The position numbers and the translations under genes are program-made. Of a stretch of 64,000 bases of DNA, positions 8,353 to 58,498 are shown one piece after another. The stretch's first letter is position 1, and each line of letters begins with the position of its first letter. The DNA is from Minisyncoccota bacterium (GTDB taxonomy: Bacteria > Patescibacteriota > Minisyncoccia > SW-4-49-11). Location of the stretch: assembly GCA_032117235.1 (NCBI GenBank), contig JAULZW010000006.1, positions 2,532-66,531 of the forward strand, read 5' to 3'. The notes beneath the pieces are model-generated. The model did no database searches, was not told the DNA's origin, and was given only the letters and a program-made list of their open reading frames with translations.

Positions 8353-8838
8353 ATGAGATATTTATCAGGAGAAGAAGAACAGGAAGCAAAAGACTATATG
8401 CAATACACCTCCGAACTTGCAAAGTCAGCAACTTGTGAGCGGAGTAAATGTGGATCTATCATCCTCGCTAATAATGTCATTATCGGGGAGGGTATTAATA
8501 GTCCAGCTCATAATCAAGAGAATCAAAGACGCTGTACTTATGATAAAGATTCCTATCACCGCAAAGTAACAGATAAAACCTGTTGTATTCATGCTGAGTA
8601 GAGAGCTATTATGGATGCTCTAGCACGGAATTCAGACAAGATAATAGGCTCAAGATTATATTTTATGAGATTAGATGAAGAGGATAATCTCACCCGAGCG
8701 GGAAAGCCATATTGTGCTATTTGTATCAAAATTTCCCTCGATGTGGGGATACAAGAATTTGTCTTATGGCATGAAGATGGAATCTGTGTATATGATACTG
8801 ATGAATATAATCTGTTATCTTATAAGTATAAGGGGTAG
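8353..8838 (+). pseudogene. CMP/dCMP-type zinc deaminase interrupted by one in-frame TAG (8599-8601)
   Basis: ORFs 8353-8601 and 8611-8838 are in the same frame. The translation reads ...TCCIHAE*RAIMDALARN...KPYCAICIK, so the HAE and PCxxC zinc motifs lie on either side of the stop. Confidence 0.6.
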
Positions 8839-8843
8839 TGTTA

Positions 8844-8872
8844 TTGTAGATATAGGGGAAATGGGGTAGAAT
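8844..8872 (+). promoter_or_regulatory. Conserved sigma70-like promoter cassette, copy 1 (TTGTAG-N17-TAGAAT)
   Basis: -35 TTGTAG at 8844-8849, a 17-nt spacer ATATAGGGGAAATGGGG, and -10 TAGAAT at 8867-8872. It lies upstream of the 8903 CDS and is one of three near-identical copies. Confidence 0.5.
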
Positions 8873-8902
8873 GAGATGATAATATAGTCCCAAATAATTA
8901 CT

Positions 8903-9592
8903 ATGGATGATTTTGAACAATATCTAGAATCTCTATCTCAGAATGAAGAGAAGAAAAGTACTTTGAACTCCAGAGAGAAGATTTTAGTCTATTCGGGAGT
9001 TCATCTTAATTGGATGGGAGATTTTTTGGCAAATCCTAATATTAACTATACCAAAAAGCAAATCCCTATAGAGCAGGTGCTTTTTACCGGGACTAGTCCA
9101 GATTGGAATGAAATATTAATTAAACAATGCAAGCGATCGGTTTCACAATTTCAAGAATTAATACAACAGGATACAGCAATCAAAGAGCTCTTTACCCAAA
9201 AAGCATCATTTGAACTTCTTCCTATTCTACTCTATGGTCCAGACGAAGAAGGTTTCTATAGAGTATTTGATGGTATGCATAGATTTGTGGGTGCTATTCT
9301 TGCAAATCACACAATTGTAGAAGCATATATCCCAACTAATGTATCAGACCATCTCCCTATTTGTGAAGCGCATGTGATTTATGATTTAATTCGAGCTTTT
9401 CAACGCCACGCAAAAGATGAAAATGGTAAAAAAGAATTATACTATGCGTTACGCTTATTAGCTCGTACTTATGGAAATGTGATTTATCTCCTAGAGAGTA
9501 GATTTAATATTACATATGTTTCAGATAATGATGTCCAAGAAATTATTACACGGGTAATTCAAGAAGTAAAACATAATCAACTGAAAGCTTAA
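8903..9592 (+). CDS. Hypothetical protein, possibly a ParB/Srx-like fold
   Basis: 229 aa. 'VFDGMHRFVGAIL' resembles the ParB-N/sulfiredoxin GxHR motif. The match is weak. Confidence 0.3.
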   Translation: MDDFEQYLESLSQNEEKKSTLNSREKILVYSGVHLNWMGDFLANPNINYTKKQIPIEQVLFTGTSPDWNEILIKQCKRSVSQFQELIQQDTAIKELFTQKASFELLPILLYGPDEEGFYRVFDGMHRFVGAILANHTIVEAYIPTNVSDHLPICEAHVIYDLIRAFQRHAKDENGKKELYYALRLLARTYGNVIYLLESRFNITYVSDNDVQEIITRVIQEVKHNQLKA

Positions 9593-9600
9593 AAGTGTTA

Positions 9601-9629
9601 TTGTACAGATAGGGGAAATGGGGTAGAAT
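9601..9629 (+). promoter_or_regulatory. Conserved promoter cassette, copy 2 (TTGTAC-N17-TAGAAT)
   Basis: TTGTAC at 9601-9606, spacer AGATAGGGGAAATGGGG, TAGAAT at 9624-9629. The -10 element overlaps the first ATG of the downstream ORF, which suggests a leaderless transcript starting near the ATG at 9637. Confidence 0.5.
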
Positions 9630-9636
9630 GAATATT

Positions 9637-10281
9637 ATGAATAAAAATATTATCATCATTGGATTAGGTCCTAAATTAGGATTTGCTATGGCAAAAAAGT
9701 TTGGGGAGAATGGATTTGTAGTTGGTCTTATTAGTCGTAATGAAATTATGTTAAAGGAGCGGGCTATTTTGTTGCAAGAGCAAGGAATTAGTGTTTTTTA
9801 TCATACAGCTAATGTATATGATAAGGATGAACTTGAGACAGCTATCTCGTTTTTGAAGAATGAAATGGGTATTATAGATGTTTTGTTTTATAATGCTGCA
9901 GGTATGAAAAGGAAAAACCTATTATCTGAAGAAACTGATGATCTCGTGAATGATTTTCGATTAAATGTTGCTCATGTATTTCATTCGGTACAATATCTTT
10001 TGGATGATTTACGACAAACAAAGGGAGCGGTATTATTAACGGGGGGAGGATTTTCGCTCAACCCTAATCATGAATTTGGGTCATTGTCATTGGGTAAGGC
10101 TGGACTAAGAAATTTAGCACTTCAATTGAATGAAGCCTTAAAAGAGGATGATATTTATGTAGGGACGCTCACTATTAATGGGCATATTCAGGTAGAGAGT
10201 AATCTCTATTCACCGTCTATATTAGCTAATATGTTTTGGGAGATGTATATGAGTAGAATAGATACAGAGATAAGATATTAG
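9637..10281 (+). CDS. SDR-like (short-chain dehydrogenase fold) protein
   Basis: N-terminal Rossmann motif 'IIIIGLGPKLGFAMAKKF', then 'YNAAG' and 'GKAGLRNL'. The canonical YxxxK Tyr is not obvious. The alternative start is 9628. Confidence 0.55.
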   Translation: MNKNIIIIGLGPKLGFAMAKKFGENGFVVGLISRNEIMLKERAILLQEQGISVFYHTANVYDKDELETAISFLKNEMGIIDVLFYNAAGMKRKNLLSEETDDLVNDFRLNVAHVFHSVQYLLDDLRQTKGAVLLTGGGFSLNPNHEFGSLSLGKAGLRNLALQLNEALKEDDIYVGTLTINGHIQVESNLYSPSILANMFWEMYMSRIDTEIRY

Positions 10282-10317: not shown

Positions 10318-10761
10318 TTAAGTCTCTTTCGTTTTCATAGATAACATAAATAAAAGAATAGATAAAATAATAAACACATAATTCCCTATACCTCCTGGGG
10401 CGACACCTGTGAGGGTAAGGGGTTTGAAAAATCCAAGTATAAGTCTGAGACTATATTCAGTAAAGACAAACAGATACATAAGGGGGATAAGAGCTTTGTA
10501 GCGAATTGTGATGATGAGAAACACTATTCCAAGCAGTAGTTGAGAAATTCCCCATAATCCAAACATAAAAATAACCGTATTAGCACTTTCTACAGAATAG
10601 GTATCGAGTGGAATAGTGGCTATACTTTGTGCTCCACCATCAGGGGCTAATATATGAATTAGACTTCGGACTATAGTTATAAAGATGATAATATAAAAAG
10701 TATAGAGAGCAATAGGATGTCCAGTATAGGTGTTATTTATTTGTTTTGGGAAAATATGCAT
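10318..10761 (-). CDS. Hypothetical polytopic membrane protein
   Basis: 147 aa with about four hydrophobic helices and no recognisable motif. Confidence 0.4.
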   Translation of the reverse strand: MHIFPKQINNTYTGHPIALYTFYIIIFITIVRSLIHILAPDGGAQSIATIPLDTYSVESANTVIFMFGLWGISQLLLGIVFLIITIRYKALIPLMYLFVFTEYSLRLILGFFKPLTLTGVAPGGIGNYVFIILSILLFMLSMKTKET

Positions 10762-11366
10762 ATGCTATTATTTTATCTATATTATATCATAGATGAATAA
10801 AAATGCGGAATAATATGCCTGTCTTATGATTTAATGTAAACTATCAATAATCATAAGTTTGATAGGACTTATTACAGTAAAGAGTCAAATTCTGTATAGA
10901 GACTTTTTATTGTAGAAATAATGTGGTCTTGAGATTTTATTATATCTATATTCTGATTTATTGCATCTGCTATTTATTGGGTAAACCCTGTACCTATAAC
11001 GAATTGAGATACGGACTCTTTATTTGGTTTTTGGCTGAAATATTCCTGAAGTAGTGTATGCCATTTACGAATATCATATTCACTAAGTCCATACTCTATC
11101 TCAGAGGACAATACATCTTGTAAATATTCAATATATGAATATAGTATTTCGTCTTCCAAAAATTTTAATGATTGAGTAATATATGGGGATTCAGGACATA
11201 GTGAATATATCTTATTATCAATAATATATTACTCCCTTACTTTGTCTACAATAGAATGAAATTTTACTCCCGCTAAAAATCTAGTGTTGTCTCACCTATT
11301 TCTAGTTCTCCATTTTTTACATATAATACGTTATATCCATAAGTGATTATGAGTTTTCTTATTTAT

Positions 11367-11570
11367 TTATACTCCAAAACTATACCCCTCCTCAGGTTGC
11401 CAAATATGCCCACATTGCTCACAAAGATGTTTTTTGTGGAGTCTTTTTGACCAATCATCTCTATCAATATGATGCAATCCACATTCAGGGCAATTTATAT
11501 CATTGCGAATAGAGAAGCTCCCAATAATTACTGAATTGCTTGGTTGGGGTTCTTGCTCTTGATTGCTCAT
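11367..11570 (-). CDS. Small zinc-ribbon protein (two CxxC pairs)
   Basis: 67 aa with 'CPECG...HLCEQCGH'. Coding status is uncertain. Confidence 0.35.
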   Translation of the reverse strand: MSNQEQEPQPSNSVIIGSFSIRNDINCPECGLHHIDRDDWSKRLHKKHLCEQCGHIWQPEEGYSFGV

Positions 11571-11615
11571 AATACAATTTACTAAATATTTATTGATTTA
11601 ACTATAACATACTTT

Positions 11616-11817
11616 TGCCCCCCTTCGGAGGGGGTGCCTGAAAGGTAGACTGTAAGTCTGGGAAAGGGGTCGGGAAAACGGGAGTTTTCCCGTGAAGGAA
11701 GGTTGGGAAACCGTGAGGTTTCACAGAAGCAAATCCTATTTGCGACGGGGGCGGATAAAATACAAACTTAAACTCTATCCACCTCCGGCCTGACGGCCAC
11801 CTCCTCCAAAGGAGGAT
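11616..11817. repeat. Full copy (modules A+B) of a GC-rich hairpin-dense element; candidate structured ncRNA or miniature mobile element
   Basis: Consecutive perfect hairpins: CCCCCC-ttcg-GAGGGGG, GGGAAAAC-ggga-GTTTTCCC, GAAACC-gtga-GGTTTC, GCAAAT-cct-ATTTGC, GGATA..TATCC, GGCC-tgac-GGCC and CCTCC-aaa-GGAGG. Module A recurs at 12548-12618 and module B at 38051-38156. Confidence 0.5.
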
Positions 11818-11888
11818 AGTTTTTGTAATAAGCTATGGTCGGTAGTCTAATAATATATAGTAATCTTTTTTGTCTACGATCTCTTCTA

Positions 11889-11917
11889 TTGTACGGATAG
11901 GAGAAATGGGTTAGAAT
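11889..11917 (+). promoter_or_regulatory. Conserved promoter cassette, copy 3 (TTGTAC-N17-TAGAAT)
   Basis: TTGTAC at 11889-11894, spacer GGATAGGAGAAATGGGT, TAGAAT at 11912-11917, upstream of the 11949 CDS. Confidence 0.45.
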
Positions 11918-11948
11918 TAGTTTTATAATATAGCAAAAAACACTTAAT

Positions 11949-12236
11949 ATGGAAGCAATAATAGGAGCTTTAAGCACATTTAATCCACTTATTGCGCTAC
12001 TAATTCTAGTAGCATATATTGTTATAGATGCACTTTATGCAAAGTATACCTTAGATATTGCCAATTATAATGAATATAGAGCTGCTACTGTTGGTTCAAT
12101 TATACACTTTTGTATTGCATTTGGAGTAATTAATTATACTGAAAACTGGCTTTATATTTTCCCCCTTGCTATTGGATCATGGATTGGAACTTTTTTGATG
12201 GTAAAAAGAGAGCGTCTCAAGAAAAAGAAAGAGTAA
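11949..12236 (+). CDS. Small hypothetical membrane protein
   Basis: 95 aa with two or three TM helices and a Lys-rich C-terminus. It is preceded by promoter cassette copy 3. Confidence 0.4.
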   Translation: MEAIIGALSTFNPLIALLILVAYIVIDALYAKYTLDIANYNEYRAATVGSIIHFCIAFGVINYTENWLYIFPLAIGSWIGTFLMVKRERLKKKKE

Positions 12237-12377
12237 CTGTGTATCTCTAGAATTATAGGCTATATATAATGTAAATTATTTATAATTATAAATCTATAAT
12301 CACTTTATACCTTTTGAATAAGAATAAGTTGCAAAATTATGAAAATTTAGGTATACTAAAATAGTTAATTTAATTAT

Positions 12378-12468
12378 GGAGAGATGGCTGAGCTGGTCGA
12401 AAGCACCACACTGCTAACGTGGCATAGGGTAAAACTTATCAAGGGTTCGAATCCCTTTCTCTCCGCCA
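12378..12468 (+). tRNA. tRNA-Ser (anticodon GCT), type II with a long variable arm and an encoded CCA
   Basis: Acceptor GGAGAGA/TCTCTCC, anticodon loop CTGCTAA, variable arm ATAGG..CTTAT, T-arm AGGG-TTCGAAT-CCCT, discriminator G, then CCA. Confidence 0.9.
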
Positions 12469-12496: not shown

Positions 12497-12648
12497 CTTT
12501 AATTTATGGGAGTTAGTAAAAAGGGATTCGAATCCAGGGAAGGGGGCGGGAAACGGGAGTTTCCCGTGGAGGATGTATTGAAACCGAGTGGTTTCAAGGA
12601 GCAAATCCCATTTGCGACAGGTTCGTAATCCCTTTCTCTCCGCCAAAA
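12497..12648 (+). repeat. Degenerate tandem copy of tRNA-Ser (pseudo-tRNA) whose middle is occupied by module A of the GC-rich hairpin element. It ends in a near-exact 28-nt repeat of the tRNA-Ser 3' end.
   Basis: The upstream context and 5' segment ('taatttatgggag') echo the true tRNA ('taattatggagag'). 12620-12648 ('ggttcgtaatccctttctctccgccaaaa') repeats the true 3' end with one indel. 12548-12618 is module A. Confidence 0.5.
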
Positions 12649-12681
12649 TATAGAGGATAGGGCTATCAGTTATTTTGTAAG

Positions 12682-13443
12682 ATGAAACTTATATCATTAA
12701 ATACATGGGGTGGTCGAGCAGGGAAGGAAAATCTTCTTGAGTTTTTTAAGGCTTATAAAGATGTAGATATTTTTTGTTTACAGGAAATTTGGGCTGCTCC
12801 ATATGAAAATCTAGAATATGACTCTGTTAGTGGATTTAGTATTGATGATGATTATGCTAAATTTTATATTCAAGAAGTTGTAGATTTGATAACAACTCAT
12901 ACAGCATATTTTAGACCACAATATTCTGATTATTGGGGCCTGATGATATTAATCAAAAAAGATATAAATGTAATTTCAGAGGGGGAGCTTTTCGTCCATA
13001 AAGAAAAGGACTATATTCCTGAAGGAGATATTGGATTACATGCACGAAATATACAATTTGCGACAATTGCAACTCCGAATGGGCACAGGTCTATTATCAA
13101 TTTTCATGGATTATGGAATGGTAAAGGAAAAGGGGATAGCGAAGATAGACTATTACAATCAGATAAAATAATTGAGTTTATACAAACTTTAGCTAATCCA
13201 TATATTATAGCTTGAGATTTTAATCTATTGCCGGATACTCAGAGTATTAAAAAGTTTGAGGACTTGGGACTGAATAATCTCATCAAAGAATATAATATTA
13301 CTTCAACACGTACGAGTTTTTATACTAAGCCCGAAAAATTTGCCGATTATGTGTTTACCGATAAAGATATTACTATAAAAGACTTTAAGGTATTACCTGA
13401 TGAGGTATCTGATCATAGTGCTTTGTATTTGGAATTTGAATAA
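12682..13443 (+). pseudogene. Endonuclease/exonuclease/phosphatase (EEP) family protein interrupted by an in-frame TGA at 13213-13215
   Basis: ORFs 12682-13215 and 13228-13443 share a frame. The sequence reads 'PYIIA*DFNLLPD', so the stop sits where the EEP 'GDFN' Gly is expected. The C-terminus has 'SDHSALY', as in the EEP family. Confidence 0.6.
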
Positions 13444-37986: not shown

Positions 37987-38050
37987 ATTTATAAAATTTA
38001 TTATATCATATTTATGCACTTTTGTACATACTATATATAGAGTCTTAAAA

Positions 38051-38156
38051 TTCCCCTCTTGAGGGGTGTACAGCTTTGCTGGACGGGGTGGATAAAACAT
38101 AAACTAAAACTATATCCACCTCCGGCACTCCGTGCCACCTCCTCCAAAGGAGGACA
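38051..38156. repeat. Partial copy (module B) of the GC-rich hairpin element
   Basis: CCCCTC-tt-GAGGGG, GGATAAAA...TATCC, GGCAC-tcc-GTGCC (compensatory versus GGCC-tgac-GGCC at 11.8 kb) and CCTCC-aaa-GGAGG. It abuts the 5' side of tRNA-Ser(TGA). Confidence 0.45.
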
Positions 38157-38238
38157 ATGTTTTATACTAATTTGTTATTAGATTATTATATTAGATATAA
38201 AGTATGCTATAATATTCATAGAATTTAATATAAAATTT

Positions 38239-57535: not shown

Positions 57536-58498
57536 ATGGAAACAAAATATAAGGTTTTAATAGTGGAAGATGATCCATTAATTAGACAAATTTATACTGA
57601 AAGGCTGAGTGCAGATCAAGATATTGATGTTTTTACAGCAGAAGATGGCTTAGATGGGTTAAATAAAATTAAGGAACAAAAATACAATTTAATTTTTTCT
57701 GGTATACAAATGCCAAATAAGACTGGGTTTGAACTATTTCAAGATTTACAAAATGATGTAGAGCTATCTAATATTCCATTTGTTATATTTAGTCATTTAG
57801 GTAGAGTTGAAGATATACAAACAGCAAAAGAATTAGGAATAGATAACTTTATAATTAGGGGTAGTACTACTCCAGATGAAGTAGCAATGACAATCAAACA
57901 TATTATTAGTAAACATAATATGTTTGAGAGTTTAGCTATAAAACAATATAAAATATTAATTGTTGAGGATAATTCTGAGATAAGAGCTACATATAGAGAT
58001 AGATTTGTTCAAAGCCCACAAATTATAGTAGAAGAAGCGATAGATGGACTAGATGGATTGAATAAAATTAAAACAAATAAATATGATTTGGTATTTTCTG
58101 GTATTTATATGCCTAATCAAACAGGGTTTGAACTATTCCAAGAAGTTCAAAATTTGGTAGATAAGAAAGATATTCCTATAGTTTTATTTAGTCATTGGGG
58201 TAGACCCGAGGATATAGAAAGGGCTAAAGAATTAGGTGTAAAATATTTTATTATAAGAGGTCAAAATACTCCTAATGATATTTTTAATCAAATATTATCT
58301 ATTTTAAGTGTTAATGATCAAATGTATAAACTTGTAATTAAAAAAGACTCCTTAGATTACTCTAAATTTGTTGCAAGATTTTATCCAAATTATATTATTG
58401 AAAATTTGGATAATGATGACATTTCAGTTAGAGTTATTTTAAGTGAGAATTCAAAGCCATTTAAATTCTTTATAGAATTAGATGATATAAATAAATAA
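57536..58498 (+). CDS. Tandem double receiver-domain protein in which both phospho-acceptor positions are Gly (pseudo-receiver), with no output domain
   Basis: Two CheY-like repeats: 'KVLIVEDD...NLIFSGIQMP...IPFVIFSH...FIIRG' and 'KILIVEDN...DLVFSGIYMP...IPIVLFSH...FIIRG'. Gly replaces the canonical Asp and Arg replaces the conserved Lys. Confidence 0.65.
   Translation: METKYKVLIVEDDPLIRQIYTERLSADQDIDVFTAEDGLDGLNKIKEQKYNLIFSGIQMPNKTGFELFQDLQNDVELSNIPFVIFSHLGRVEDIQTAKELGIDNFIIRGSTTPDEVAMTIKHIISKHNMFESLAIKQYKILIVEDNSEIRATYRDRFVQSPQIIVEEAIDGLDGLNKIKTNKYDLVFSGIYMPNQTGFELFQEVQNLVDKKDIPIVLFSHWGRPEDIERAKELGVKYFIIRGQNTPNDIFNQILSILSVNDQMYKLVIKKDSLDYSKFVARFYPNYIIENLDNDDISVRVILSENSKPFKFFIELDDINK

Follow-up and report, generated by a model that had tools for sequence, protein, structure and literature searches.

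Genomic setting and gene content of the locus

The window, by which we mean the whole 64-kb stretch of DNA analyzed here, belongs to the AT-rich chromosome (~32% GC) of a Paceibacteria (CPR) organism; the host is placed among the CPR bacteria because its nearest genome, L002, is a Candidatus Paceibacteria MAG. Chromosomal genes in the window include mraZ/mraW/ftsI/mur, topA, GAPDH, enolase, ftsK, recJ and an aminoacyl-tRNA synthetase, together with RNase P RNA and four tRNAs. The usual promoters of the host genome take the form TTGACA-N17-(TGn)TATAAT with AT-rich spacers (mean spacer GC 0.26). Shine-Dalgarno-like sequences are essentially lacking, with only 2 of 49 gene starts in the window preceded by one. 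We also observed that several window genes have TATAATATAG, then exactly 15 nt, then the ATG (starts 8903, 11949 and 28806), and that the same arrangement precedes ATG 10761 of the minus-strand gene 10318-10761; the constant distance suggests short leaders of fixed length.

Within the window lies a hypervariable island whose conserved left border is a dCMP-deaminase-like gene and whose right border is tRNA-Ser(gct) (Table 1). The deaminase-like gene is broken by an in-frame TAG at 8599-8601 (CIHAE*RAIMDA), where its orthologues have CAA (Gln). The same TAG recurs in an independent assembly (L038) and probably represents a nonsense mutation or a pseudogene. The first gene inside the island encodes a 229-aa ORFan that is present on only one other contig, of the same haplotype, and that had no significant match in Pfam, NCBIfam, PADLOC, PHROGs or PDB; a ParB-like identity, suspected from a DGxHR motif, was dropped for want of a significant match to profile or structure libraries. 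It is followed by a gene for a short-chain dehydrogenase (SDR) and, further downstream, by genes for a small Zn-ribbon protein and for a 95-aa membrane protein that is a conserved small CPR protein.

Table 1. Coordinates of the features discussed in the text, by position in the window.
Feature	Position	Strand	Details
dCMP-deaminase-like gene	8353..8838	+	conserved left border of variable island
P1 (copy 1)	8837..8874	+	reads AGTGTTATTGTAGATATAGGGGAAATGGGGTAGAATGA; 29-nt core 8844-8872; -35 TTGTAG 8844-8849; spacer ATATAGGGGAAATGGGG 8850-8866; -10 TAGAAT 8867-8872
229-aa ORFan	8903..9592	+	ATG 8903, 30 nt after P1 -10; predicted to be P1-driven
P2 (copy 2)	9594..9631	+	reads AGTGTTATTGTACAGATAGGGGAAATGGGGTAGAATGA; 29-nt core 9601-9629; -35 TTGTAC 9601-9606; spacer 9607-9623; -10 TAGAAT 9624-9629
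SDR gene	9637..10281	+	ATG 9637; longest ORF from ATG 9628
Repeat R, first copy	10832..10858	+	TAATGTAAACTATCAATAATCATAAGT; at block boundary
Small Zn-ribbon protein gene	11367..11570	-	67 aa; accompanies P3 in every strain carrying P3
RNA-like element	11610..11826	+	GC-rich, with own terminator
P3 (copy 3)	11882..11919	+	reads TCTTCTATTGTACGGATAGGAGAAATGGGTTAGAATTA; 29-nt core 11889-11917; -35 TTGTAC 11889-11894; spacer GGATAGGAGAAATGGGT; -10 TAGAAT 11912-11917
95-aa membrane protein gene	11949..12236	+	ATG 11949; predicted to be P3-driven
Repeat R, second copy	12267..12293	+	just upstream of tRNA-Ser promoter
tRNA-Ser(gct)	12378..12468	+	right border of island

Three copies of a promoter-like block

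Direct reading of the sequence shows three copies of a promoter-like block (P1, P2 and P3) with the core TTGTA(G/C)-NN-ATAGG(G/A)GAAATGGG(G/T)-TAGAAT and a spacer of 17 nt. A repeat finder grouped them as one family, with copies 2 and 3 at 95% and 74% identity to copy 1. Searching the window for GGGGAAATGGGGTAGAAT with up to 3 mismatches returned 3 matches, compared with 0.02 expected from shuffled sequence, and the 29-nt degenerate pattern also returned 3, compared with 0.00 expected. There are no further copies in the 64-kb window; the 12-mer GGGGAAATGGGG, with up to 2 mismatches, gave elsewhere in it only one chance-level match. Each copy lies upstream of a plus-strand ORF and is oriented like that ORF. 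The proteins encoded by these ORFs are unrelated, with no Pfam family in common and a clear family for the SDR only. The sequence-only reading had described three near-identical TTGTA(G/C)-N17-TAGAAT copies in front of unrelated genes, and these counts bear it out. It had also given the copies a common upstream flank of ~7-10 nt, which holds for copies 1 and 2 but not for copy 3, which shares the 29-nt block alone.

P1 begins at the stop codon of the deaminase gene and has orthologues in L002, L029, L052 and L055; its transcription start is predicted at ~8879. P1 and P2 are identical at 36 of 38 positions, including a private 7-nt extension (AGTGTTA), suggesting that duplication or conversion occurred recently in this strain; the two flank the ORFan cassette as direct repeats. 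P3 is invariant across all strains that carry the 95-aa gene. In both P1 and P3 a second -10-like hexamer (GATAAT and TATAAT, respectively) lies 5-6 nt downstream and could be the real -10 of these copies.

The start of the SDR gene deserves comment, as ATG 9637 lies 7 nt after the TAGAAT of P2. For SDR orthologues that have a different promoter (L002, L031 and L055), the alignment begins at the codon matching ATG 9637; this codon reads ATA in L031, and in L002 it is closely preceded by a stop codon. ATG 9637 is probably the true start, in which case the SDR mRNA would be leaderless or nearly so, and the earlier proposal of a leaderless transcript from this ATG is plausible on the strength of the orthologue alignment and the upstream stop in L002.

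Two other readings of the block were rejected. An RNA element found no Rfam match even at E <= 1, and the G-rich block cannot self-pair. A mini-ORF with its own Shine-Dalgarno sequence (AGGGGAAATGGGGTAG, read as SD plus Met-Gly-stop) fails because Shine-Dalgarno sequences are near-absent in this host, the spacing is too short and the stop is lost in the second copy of L016 (L016b) and in L055.

Distribution of the block among related strains

We scanned 185,579 species genomes, one representative genome per species, for exact matches to the 20-mer pattern TAGGNGAAATGGGNTAGAAT and obtained 9 loci, the only related one being L002. A search of metagenome contigs with the same pattern gave 19 loci and added only L016 and L020 as related ones, and a search of viral contigs gave 0 loci. 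The remaining matches have unrelated flanks and base compositions, and their number is within our own chance estimate of ~17 per scan. Among them, several Bdellovibrionales MAGs and contigs (L001, L006, L009, L021 and L026) carry an orthologous promoter-like site, TTGACG-cacTAGGGGAAATGGGC-TAGAAT, with a spacer almost identical to ours in a phylum unrelated to that of the host. The three Bdellovibrionales species-genome matches are one orthologous locus, and the total number of matches is consistent with chance. A genome-wide pattern search had been proposed. In the species-representative MAG L002 it yielded only two exact copies, both inside this island, and a genome-wide regulon is not seen.

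Further haplotypes were found through look-ups of island proteins followed by relaxed motif scans, which brought the collection to 12 distinct copies. The relatives stem from lake metagenomes, L002 being a Lake Mendota-type MAG. All 12 lie between the dCMP-deaminase stop codon and tRNA-Ser(gct), and all 12 are oriented like the next gene, with 7-103 nt between the -10 and the start codon. Copies precede at least nine unrelated genes, among them the ORFan, the SDR, membrane proteins and a restriction-modification methylase. Where a convergent gene follows the deaminase, as in L049-51, the block is absent. It is lineage-specific: in other lineages the orthologous downstream genes lack it, as do some sister strains (L031/32). 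The idea of a motif tied to the 95-aa gene was rejected because orthologues of that gene at 72-81% identity are preceded by unrelated sequence in which the block is missing. Since the block is not tied to the genes downstream of it, it appears as a young, lineage-specific module that is reused within the island.

The sequence-only reading had named membership of a larger dispersed repeat as an outcome that would count against it. The copies show no such membership: their flanks are unrelated up to the edges of the block, and they lie in one island, before genes. BLAST searches for a phage or plasmid origin of the block gave chance matches only, a look-up of the DUF805 protein for further contigs found no exact match on record, and a literature search with the 12-mer found only unrelated eukaryotic papers.

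Block order in the island varies among strains, and part of the cargo is nuclease-like or restriction-modification-like. The window and L038 share the arrangement P1-ORFan-P2-SDR. In L029, L030 and L033, P1 is followed by genes for proteins of 268 aa, 238 aa (HSDR_N_2) and 181 aa (bPH/SHOCT), and then by a P2 variant (P2') and the SDR gene; in these L029-type strains the P2 site has GGGGAAATGGGGTAGAAT with a different left half (TTGATA). L002 has P1, genes for 122 aa and 155 aa, another promoter and the SDR gene, and L055 has P1, a DNA methylase gene, a gene for an AlwI-type endonuclease, another promoter and the SDR gene. Two copies are also present in L052 (P-186aa-P-89aa) and in L016 and L047 (P-membrane protein-P-nuclease-like gene). 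L031 and L032 have neither P1 nor P2, and L049-51 have a convergent transporter gene and no block. Five haplotypes carry five different cassettes behind the resident P1, and the SDR promoter is P2 in some strains and a different one in L002, L031 and L055.

Anatomy and conservation of the block

The hexamers of the 12 copies are a TTG-type -35 and a TAnAAT -10 separated by a 17-nt spacer, the one exception being the second copy of L052 (L052b), with TAGCAG at the -35 position. The -35 varies among TTGTAG, TTGTAC, TTGATA (L029 P2) and TTGGAG and has been lost in L052b alone; the -10 reads TAGAAT or, in L016b and L055, TATAAT. Hexamers 17 +/- 1 bp apart and a promoter-like position and orientation before genes are the hallmarks of sigma-70 promoters, and the anatomy given in the sequence-only reading, with a TTG-type -35, a 17-nt spacer and a TAGAAT or TATAAT -10, recurs across the copies. 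In an alignment of eight copies (A1), the flanks are unrelated up to the edges of the 29-nt block.

We then compared the parts of the block, bearing in mind that conservation statistics are only indicative here as the copies are phylogenetically related. Across the 12 copies departures from consensus were most frequent in the -35 (0.111), followed by positions 1-5 of the spacer (0.067), its G-rich positions 6-17 (0.035) and the -10 (0.028), so that the G-rich half of the spacer is conserved like the -10 and more than the -35. In L052b the -35 is lost and AGATAGGGGAAATGGGGTAGAAT is kept perfectly. Among five orthologous P1 copies (A2), 3 of 29 sites in the block were variable, while in the adjoining gene 14 of 31 third-codon positions varied (p = 0.004); for the spacer the count was 2 of 17 against the same 14 of 31 (p = 0.026), and downstream of the block 24 of 28 sites were variable. 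The spacer is constrained in this lineage, to judge from these alignments, and the earlier claim of an unusually conserved spacer stands. The constraint is not universal, since the two copies of L047, a more distant relative, have decayed about as fast as the background or are broken by a deletion.

Neither dyad symmetry nor a helically phased direct repeat is present in the spacer, whose GGGG runs are 8 nt apart. It does not form a TGn extended -10 either, as the sequence is TGGGG-TAGAAT, with TG at -17/-16 and G at -16 to -13. The points at which strains diverge are scattered. Downstream of P1 they fall 7-17 nt after TAGAAT; elsewhere they fall after TTGTA (L054), before AGATA (L052b), before GGGG (L029 P2) or after GGGGAAAT (L047b), with no common crossover point.

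Proposed interpretation as a reused sigma-70-type promoter

With moderate confidence, we propose that TTGTAG-AGATAGGGGAAATGGGG-TAGAAT is a compact housekeeping sigma-70-type promoter of a single strain-variable island, that it has been duplicated there, and that its G-rich spacer is mainly part of the core promoter. P1 would be the resident copy, placed at the island's left end immediately behind the deaminase stop codon and driving any forward cassette that comes to lie there. P2, P3 and the second copies in L016 and L052 would have arisen through local duplication or recombination, and such extra copies may supply individual cassettes with a transcription start of their own. With RNA polymerase starting ~7 nt after TAGAAT, the ORFan and 95-aa transcripts would have leaders of 20-30 nt, and the SDR mRNA would have essentially none. 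The A/T tract and the G run that follows it and abuts the -10 may together act like an extended -10, offsetting a weak and replaceable -35.

A spacer architecture of four regions has been described across bacteria, in which an A/T tract and a G-rich stretch beside the -10 raise promoter strength, the spacer alone having effects of up to 600-fold (PMC12641261). In the same work a G-rich -10-proximal stretch can substitute for the -35, and G at -14/-13 is a feature of the mycobacterial minimal promoter (PMC12641261). The succession AGATA, GGGG, AAAT and GGGG in our spacer matches the four-region layout of that study (PMC12641261), and conservation rising from the -35 through the spacer to the -10 is what one would predict for a promoter whose -10-proximal spacer stands in for the -35. 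By this comparison the spacer is probably part of the core promoter, a role that explains it equally well or better than a regulator site does. A regulator-binding site or a mobile promoter module had been put forward in the sequence-only reading. Reuse in front of at least nine unrelated genes agrees with the general idea, but a regulator was not found and dyad symmetry is lacking in the spacer; the word mobile is apt only for reuse inside one island, as transposon-like features were not found. More generally, no recombinase, alternative sigma factor or regulator linked to the block was detected in the window or in the haplotypes examined.

Alternatively, the spacer may be an operator, with an island-specific protein binding ATAGGGGAAATGGGG, overlapping the -10 and co-regulating the cassettes as a small local regulon. 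We regard this as possible but unlikely. The spacer is constrained beyond the hexamers and differs from the AT-rich spacers of ordinary host promoters; since these show that a G-rich spacer is not required by the polymerase, it could mark regulation. The motif is also limited to one neighborhood with nuclease and restriction-modification-type cargo, and the small Zn-ribbon gene lies beside P3 in every strain carrying P3. However, an operator would be expected to show the dyad symmetry or helically phased repeat that the spacer lacks. No regulator gene co-occurs with the block across the haplotypes examined (there is none in L016 or L052, and no nearby candidate in the window), the L047 copies decay, and polymerase contacts already account for the spacer layout.

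A more doubtful explanation is that the spacer has no function and that its identity among copies reflects recent descent of one piece of ~30-40 nt, or gene conversion, rather than selection. Such descent would agree with the lineage specificity of the motif, which is missing from orthologous promoters elsewhere and from sister strains L031/32, with the private extension that marks P1 and P2 (36/38 identical) as products of a recent event within the strain, and with drift of the L047 copies at the background rate. Yet neutrality would make the spacer more variable than the rest of the block, while its G-rich part is conserved like the -10 and above the -35, and the spacer is less variable than the adjoining third-codon positions. 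The edges of the block also coincide with the limits of the promoter in 12 contexts.

That the block is primarily an att-like recombination site for the insertion or exchange of cassettes, its likeness to a promoter being secondary, seems to us very improbable. Direct copies do bracket cassettes, namely the ORFan in the window, three genes between P1 and P2 in L029 and one gene in L016, and homology between strains ends at or near the block. Nevertheless, the inverted-repeat arms of recombinase core sites are absent, no integrase or recombinase is encoded in the window or beside the copies, the breakpoints are scattered rather than placed at one crossover point, and the block is missing if the next gene lies on the other strand.

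Recognition by an alternative sigma factor, or by a phage-type single-subunit RNA polymerase starting at ATA|GGGG as in T7, seems to us highly improbable: the ~21 nt of contiguous conservation that include ATAGGGGA are superficially like the T7 promoter (CTATAGGGAGA), and GGGTAGAAT fits a GGnnAnAnT-type -10, but no gene for such a polymerase or sigma factor is present in the 64-kb window, viral contigs gave no matches, there are only 2-3 copies per genome, and the hexamers, their spacing and the TTGATA and TATAAT variants fit sigma-70 better. Readings as SigB/F-, ECF-, sigma-54- and SPO1 gp28-like promoters were rejected, as the copies do not consistently show the required spacings or second boxes.

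Comparison with known systems

Both promoter reuse and variable islands have been described before, and the block, read as a reused sigma-70-type promoter, is a real but fairly ordinary instance of such reuse, not a new kind of element or a demonstrated new mechanism. The closest known case is promoter reuse in the form of "putative mobile promoters" (Matus-Garcia, Nijveen and van Passel 2012; PMC3575422). As in that work, similar upstream sequence stands before non-paralogous genes of a genome and of its close relatives, and no transposase is associated with it (PMC3575422). The screen that defined those promoters asked for >=50 nt at >=80% identity between -150 and -50 (PMC3575422). Our block differs in being 29-38 nt long, below that length, in including the -10, in lying within -7 to -140 and in having flanks that cannot be aligned. 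Putative mobile promoters are also scattered, whereas all copies of the block are in one island.

P1 resembles the platform promoter Pc of integrons in being fixed at the edge of an array, before unrelated cassettes that can replace one another, many of which are small or have no known function. In an integron, cassettes are inserted downstream of the resident Pc and are mostly promoterless. Unlike an integron, the island has no integrase, no attI/attC-type palindromes and no single crossover point, and its internal cassettes carry a promoter copy of their own; a recombinase was found neither in the window nor beside the copies, and the block lacks dyad symmetry. Nor does the block have the makings of a miniature transposable element, as the unit is only 29-38 nt long, has no inverted ends, is confined to one island and always stands before genes.

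With extended -10 and G-rich spacer promoters the block shares G directly upstream of the -10, a preceding A/T tract, a weak or dispensable -35 and apparent selection on the spacer. It differs from the TGn extended -10 (-15/-14) in having its TG at -17/-16 and a longer conserved stretch (15 nt). The host's usual promoters, in contrast, use the classical TGnTATAAT.

To our knowledge, almost nothing has been established experimentally about the transcription signals of CPR/Patescibacteria, which cannot grow alone. The block is a candidate for a strong, portable CPR promoter, for example in reporter or heterologous-expression work, and its copies form a natural experiment on the importance of the promoter spacer, within the narrow lineage to which the motif is limited. 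The locus shows a very small genome keeping one hot spot for the swapping of accessory and defense-type genes between strains.

A companion repeat and other features of the island

A second repeat, R, is present twice in the island. The copies at 10832 and 12267 bracket a block consisting of a minus-strand gene for 61 aa, the minus-strand Zn-ribbon gene, a non-coding RNA and P3 with the 95-aa gene, and the position of this block is strain-dependent. The consensus of R is TAATGTAAA(T/C)TAT(C/T)(A/T)ATAAT(T/C)A(C/T)AA(A/G)T. It was found in the window, L002, L029, L031, L047 and L055, with a remnant in L054; all copies have the same orientation and lie at the edges of blocks that vary in order or presence between strains. 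In L002, L031 and L055, R is the upstream part of the alternative SDR promoter (TTACAA-N16-TATAAT).

Xer/dif sites are 28 bp long and consist of two 11-bp arms and a 6-bp center, with a conserved inner palindrome (PMC6449649). One variant of R, TTATCTCATAA-TGTAAA-TTATCAATAAT, can be divided 11-6-11 in the manner of a dif/Xer site, with ATAA/TTAT as the inner palindrome; the fit is poorer for other variants, and the likeness could be due to chance in AT-rich DNA. As in the dif modules of Acinetobacter, a short repeated site bounds accessory-gene blocks that are shuffled between relatives (PMC6449649), but R copies have one orientation whereas pdif sites alternate (PMC6449649), and the R locus, unlike those modules, is chromosomal and does not coincide with a GC-skew switch. 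No Xer genes were seen in the window, and FtsK with a gamma domain is present there. One could imagine the island, from the deaminase to tRNA-Ser, as an integrase-less CPR gene-cassette system, in which the promoter block and a dif-like R are portable scaffolding for plugging in, expressing and shuffling DNA, with natural transformation as a possible source, R being used by the host Xer/FtsK and the promoter block doubling as a short homology anchor; we regard this as speculative and improbable.

Behind tRNA-Ser(gct) we observed an insert of ~150 nt, GC-rich, followed at 12600-12650 by a duplicated and slightly different tRNA 3' half (GGTTCGTAATCCCTTTCTCTCCGCCA), an arrangement suggestive of a scar left by an integrated element. 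Beyond the tRNA, some strains have a large serine recombinase element, and in L031 a large serine recombinase gene and an HTH gene occupy the corresponding region after the 95-aa gene. The RNA-like element upstream of P3 is GC-rich and structured within an AT-rich genome (MFE -84 kcal/mol, z = -2.96), ends in its own terminator (CCTCCTCCAAAGGAGG plus a T-run) and had no Rfam match. It is kept in L002, where its 5' hairpin is longer. A shorter relative at 38045-38160 (+) adjoins tRNA-Ser(tga), and the central domain recurs at 12520-12620 (+), in the insert after tRNA-Ser(gct).

Among 57 ORFs in the window, 48 end in TAA, 8 in TAG and 1 in TGA. An in-frame TGA at 13213-13215 interrupts an endonuclease/exonuclease/phosphatase gene (IIA*DFNLL), apparently at the Gly of what we take to be the "GDFN" motif, and could indicate a pseudogene or hint at unusual use of TGA. 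Finally, the segment 57643-58278 holds two 399-nt tandem repeats at 73-77% identity within gene 57536-58498, which encodes a protein with two receiver domains, and is an internal domain duplication.
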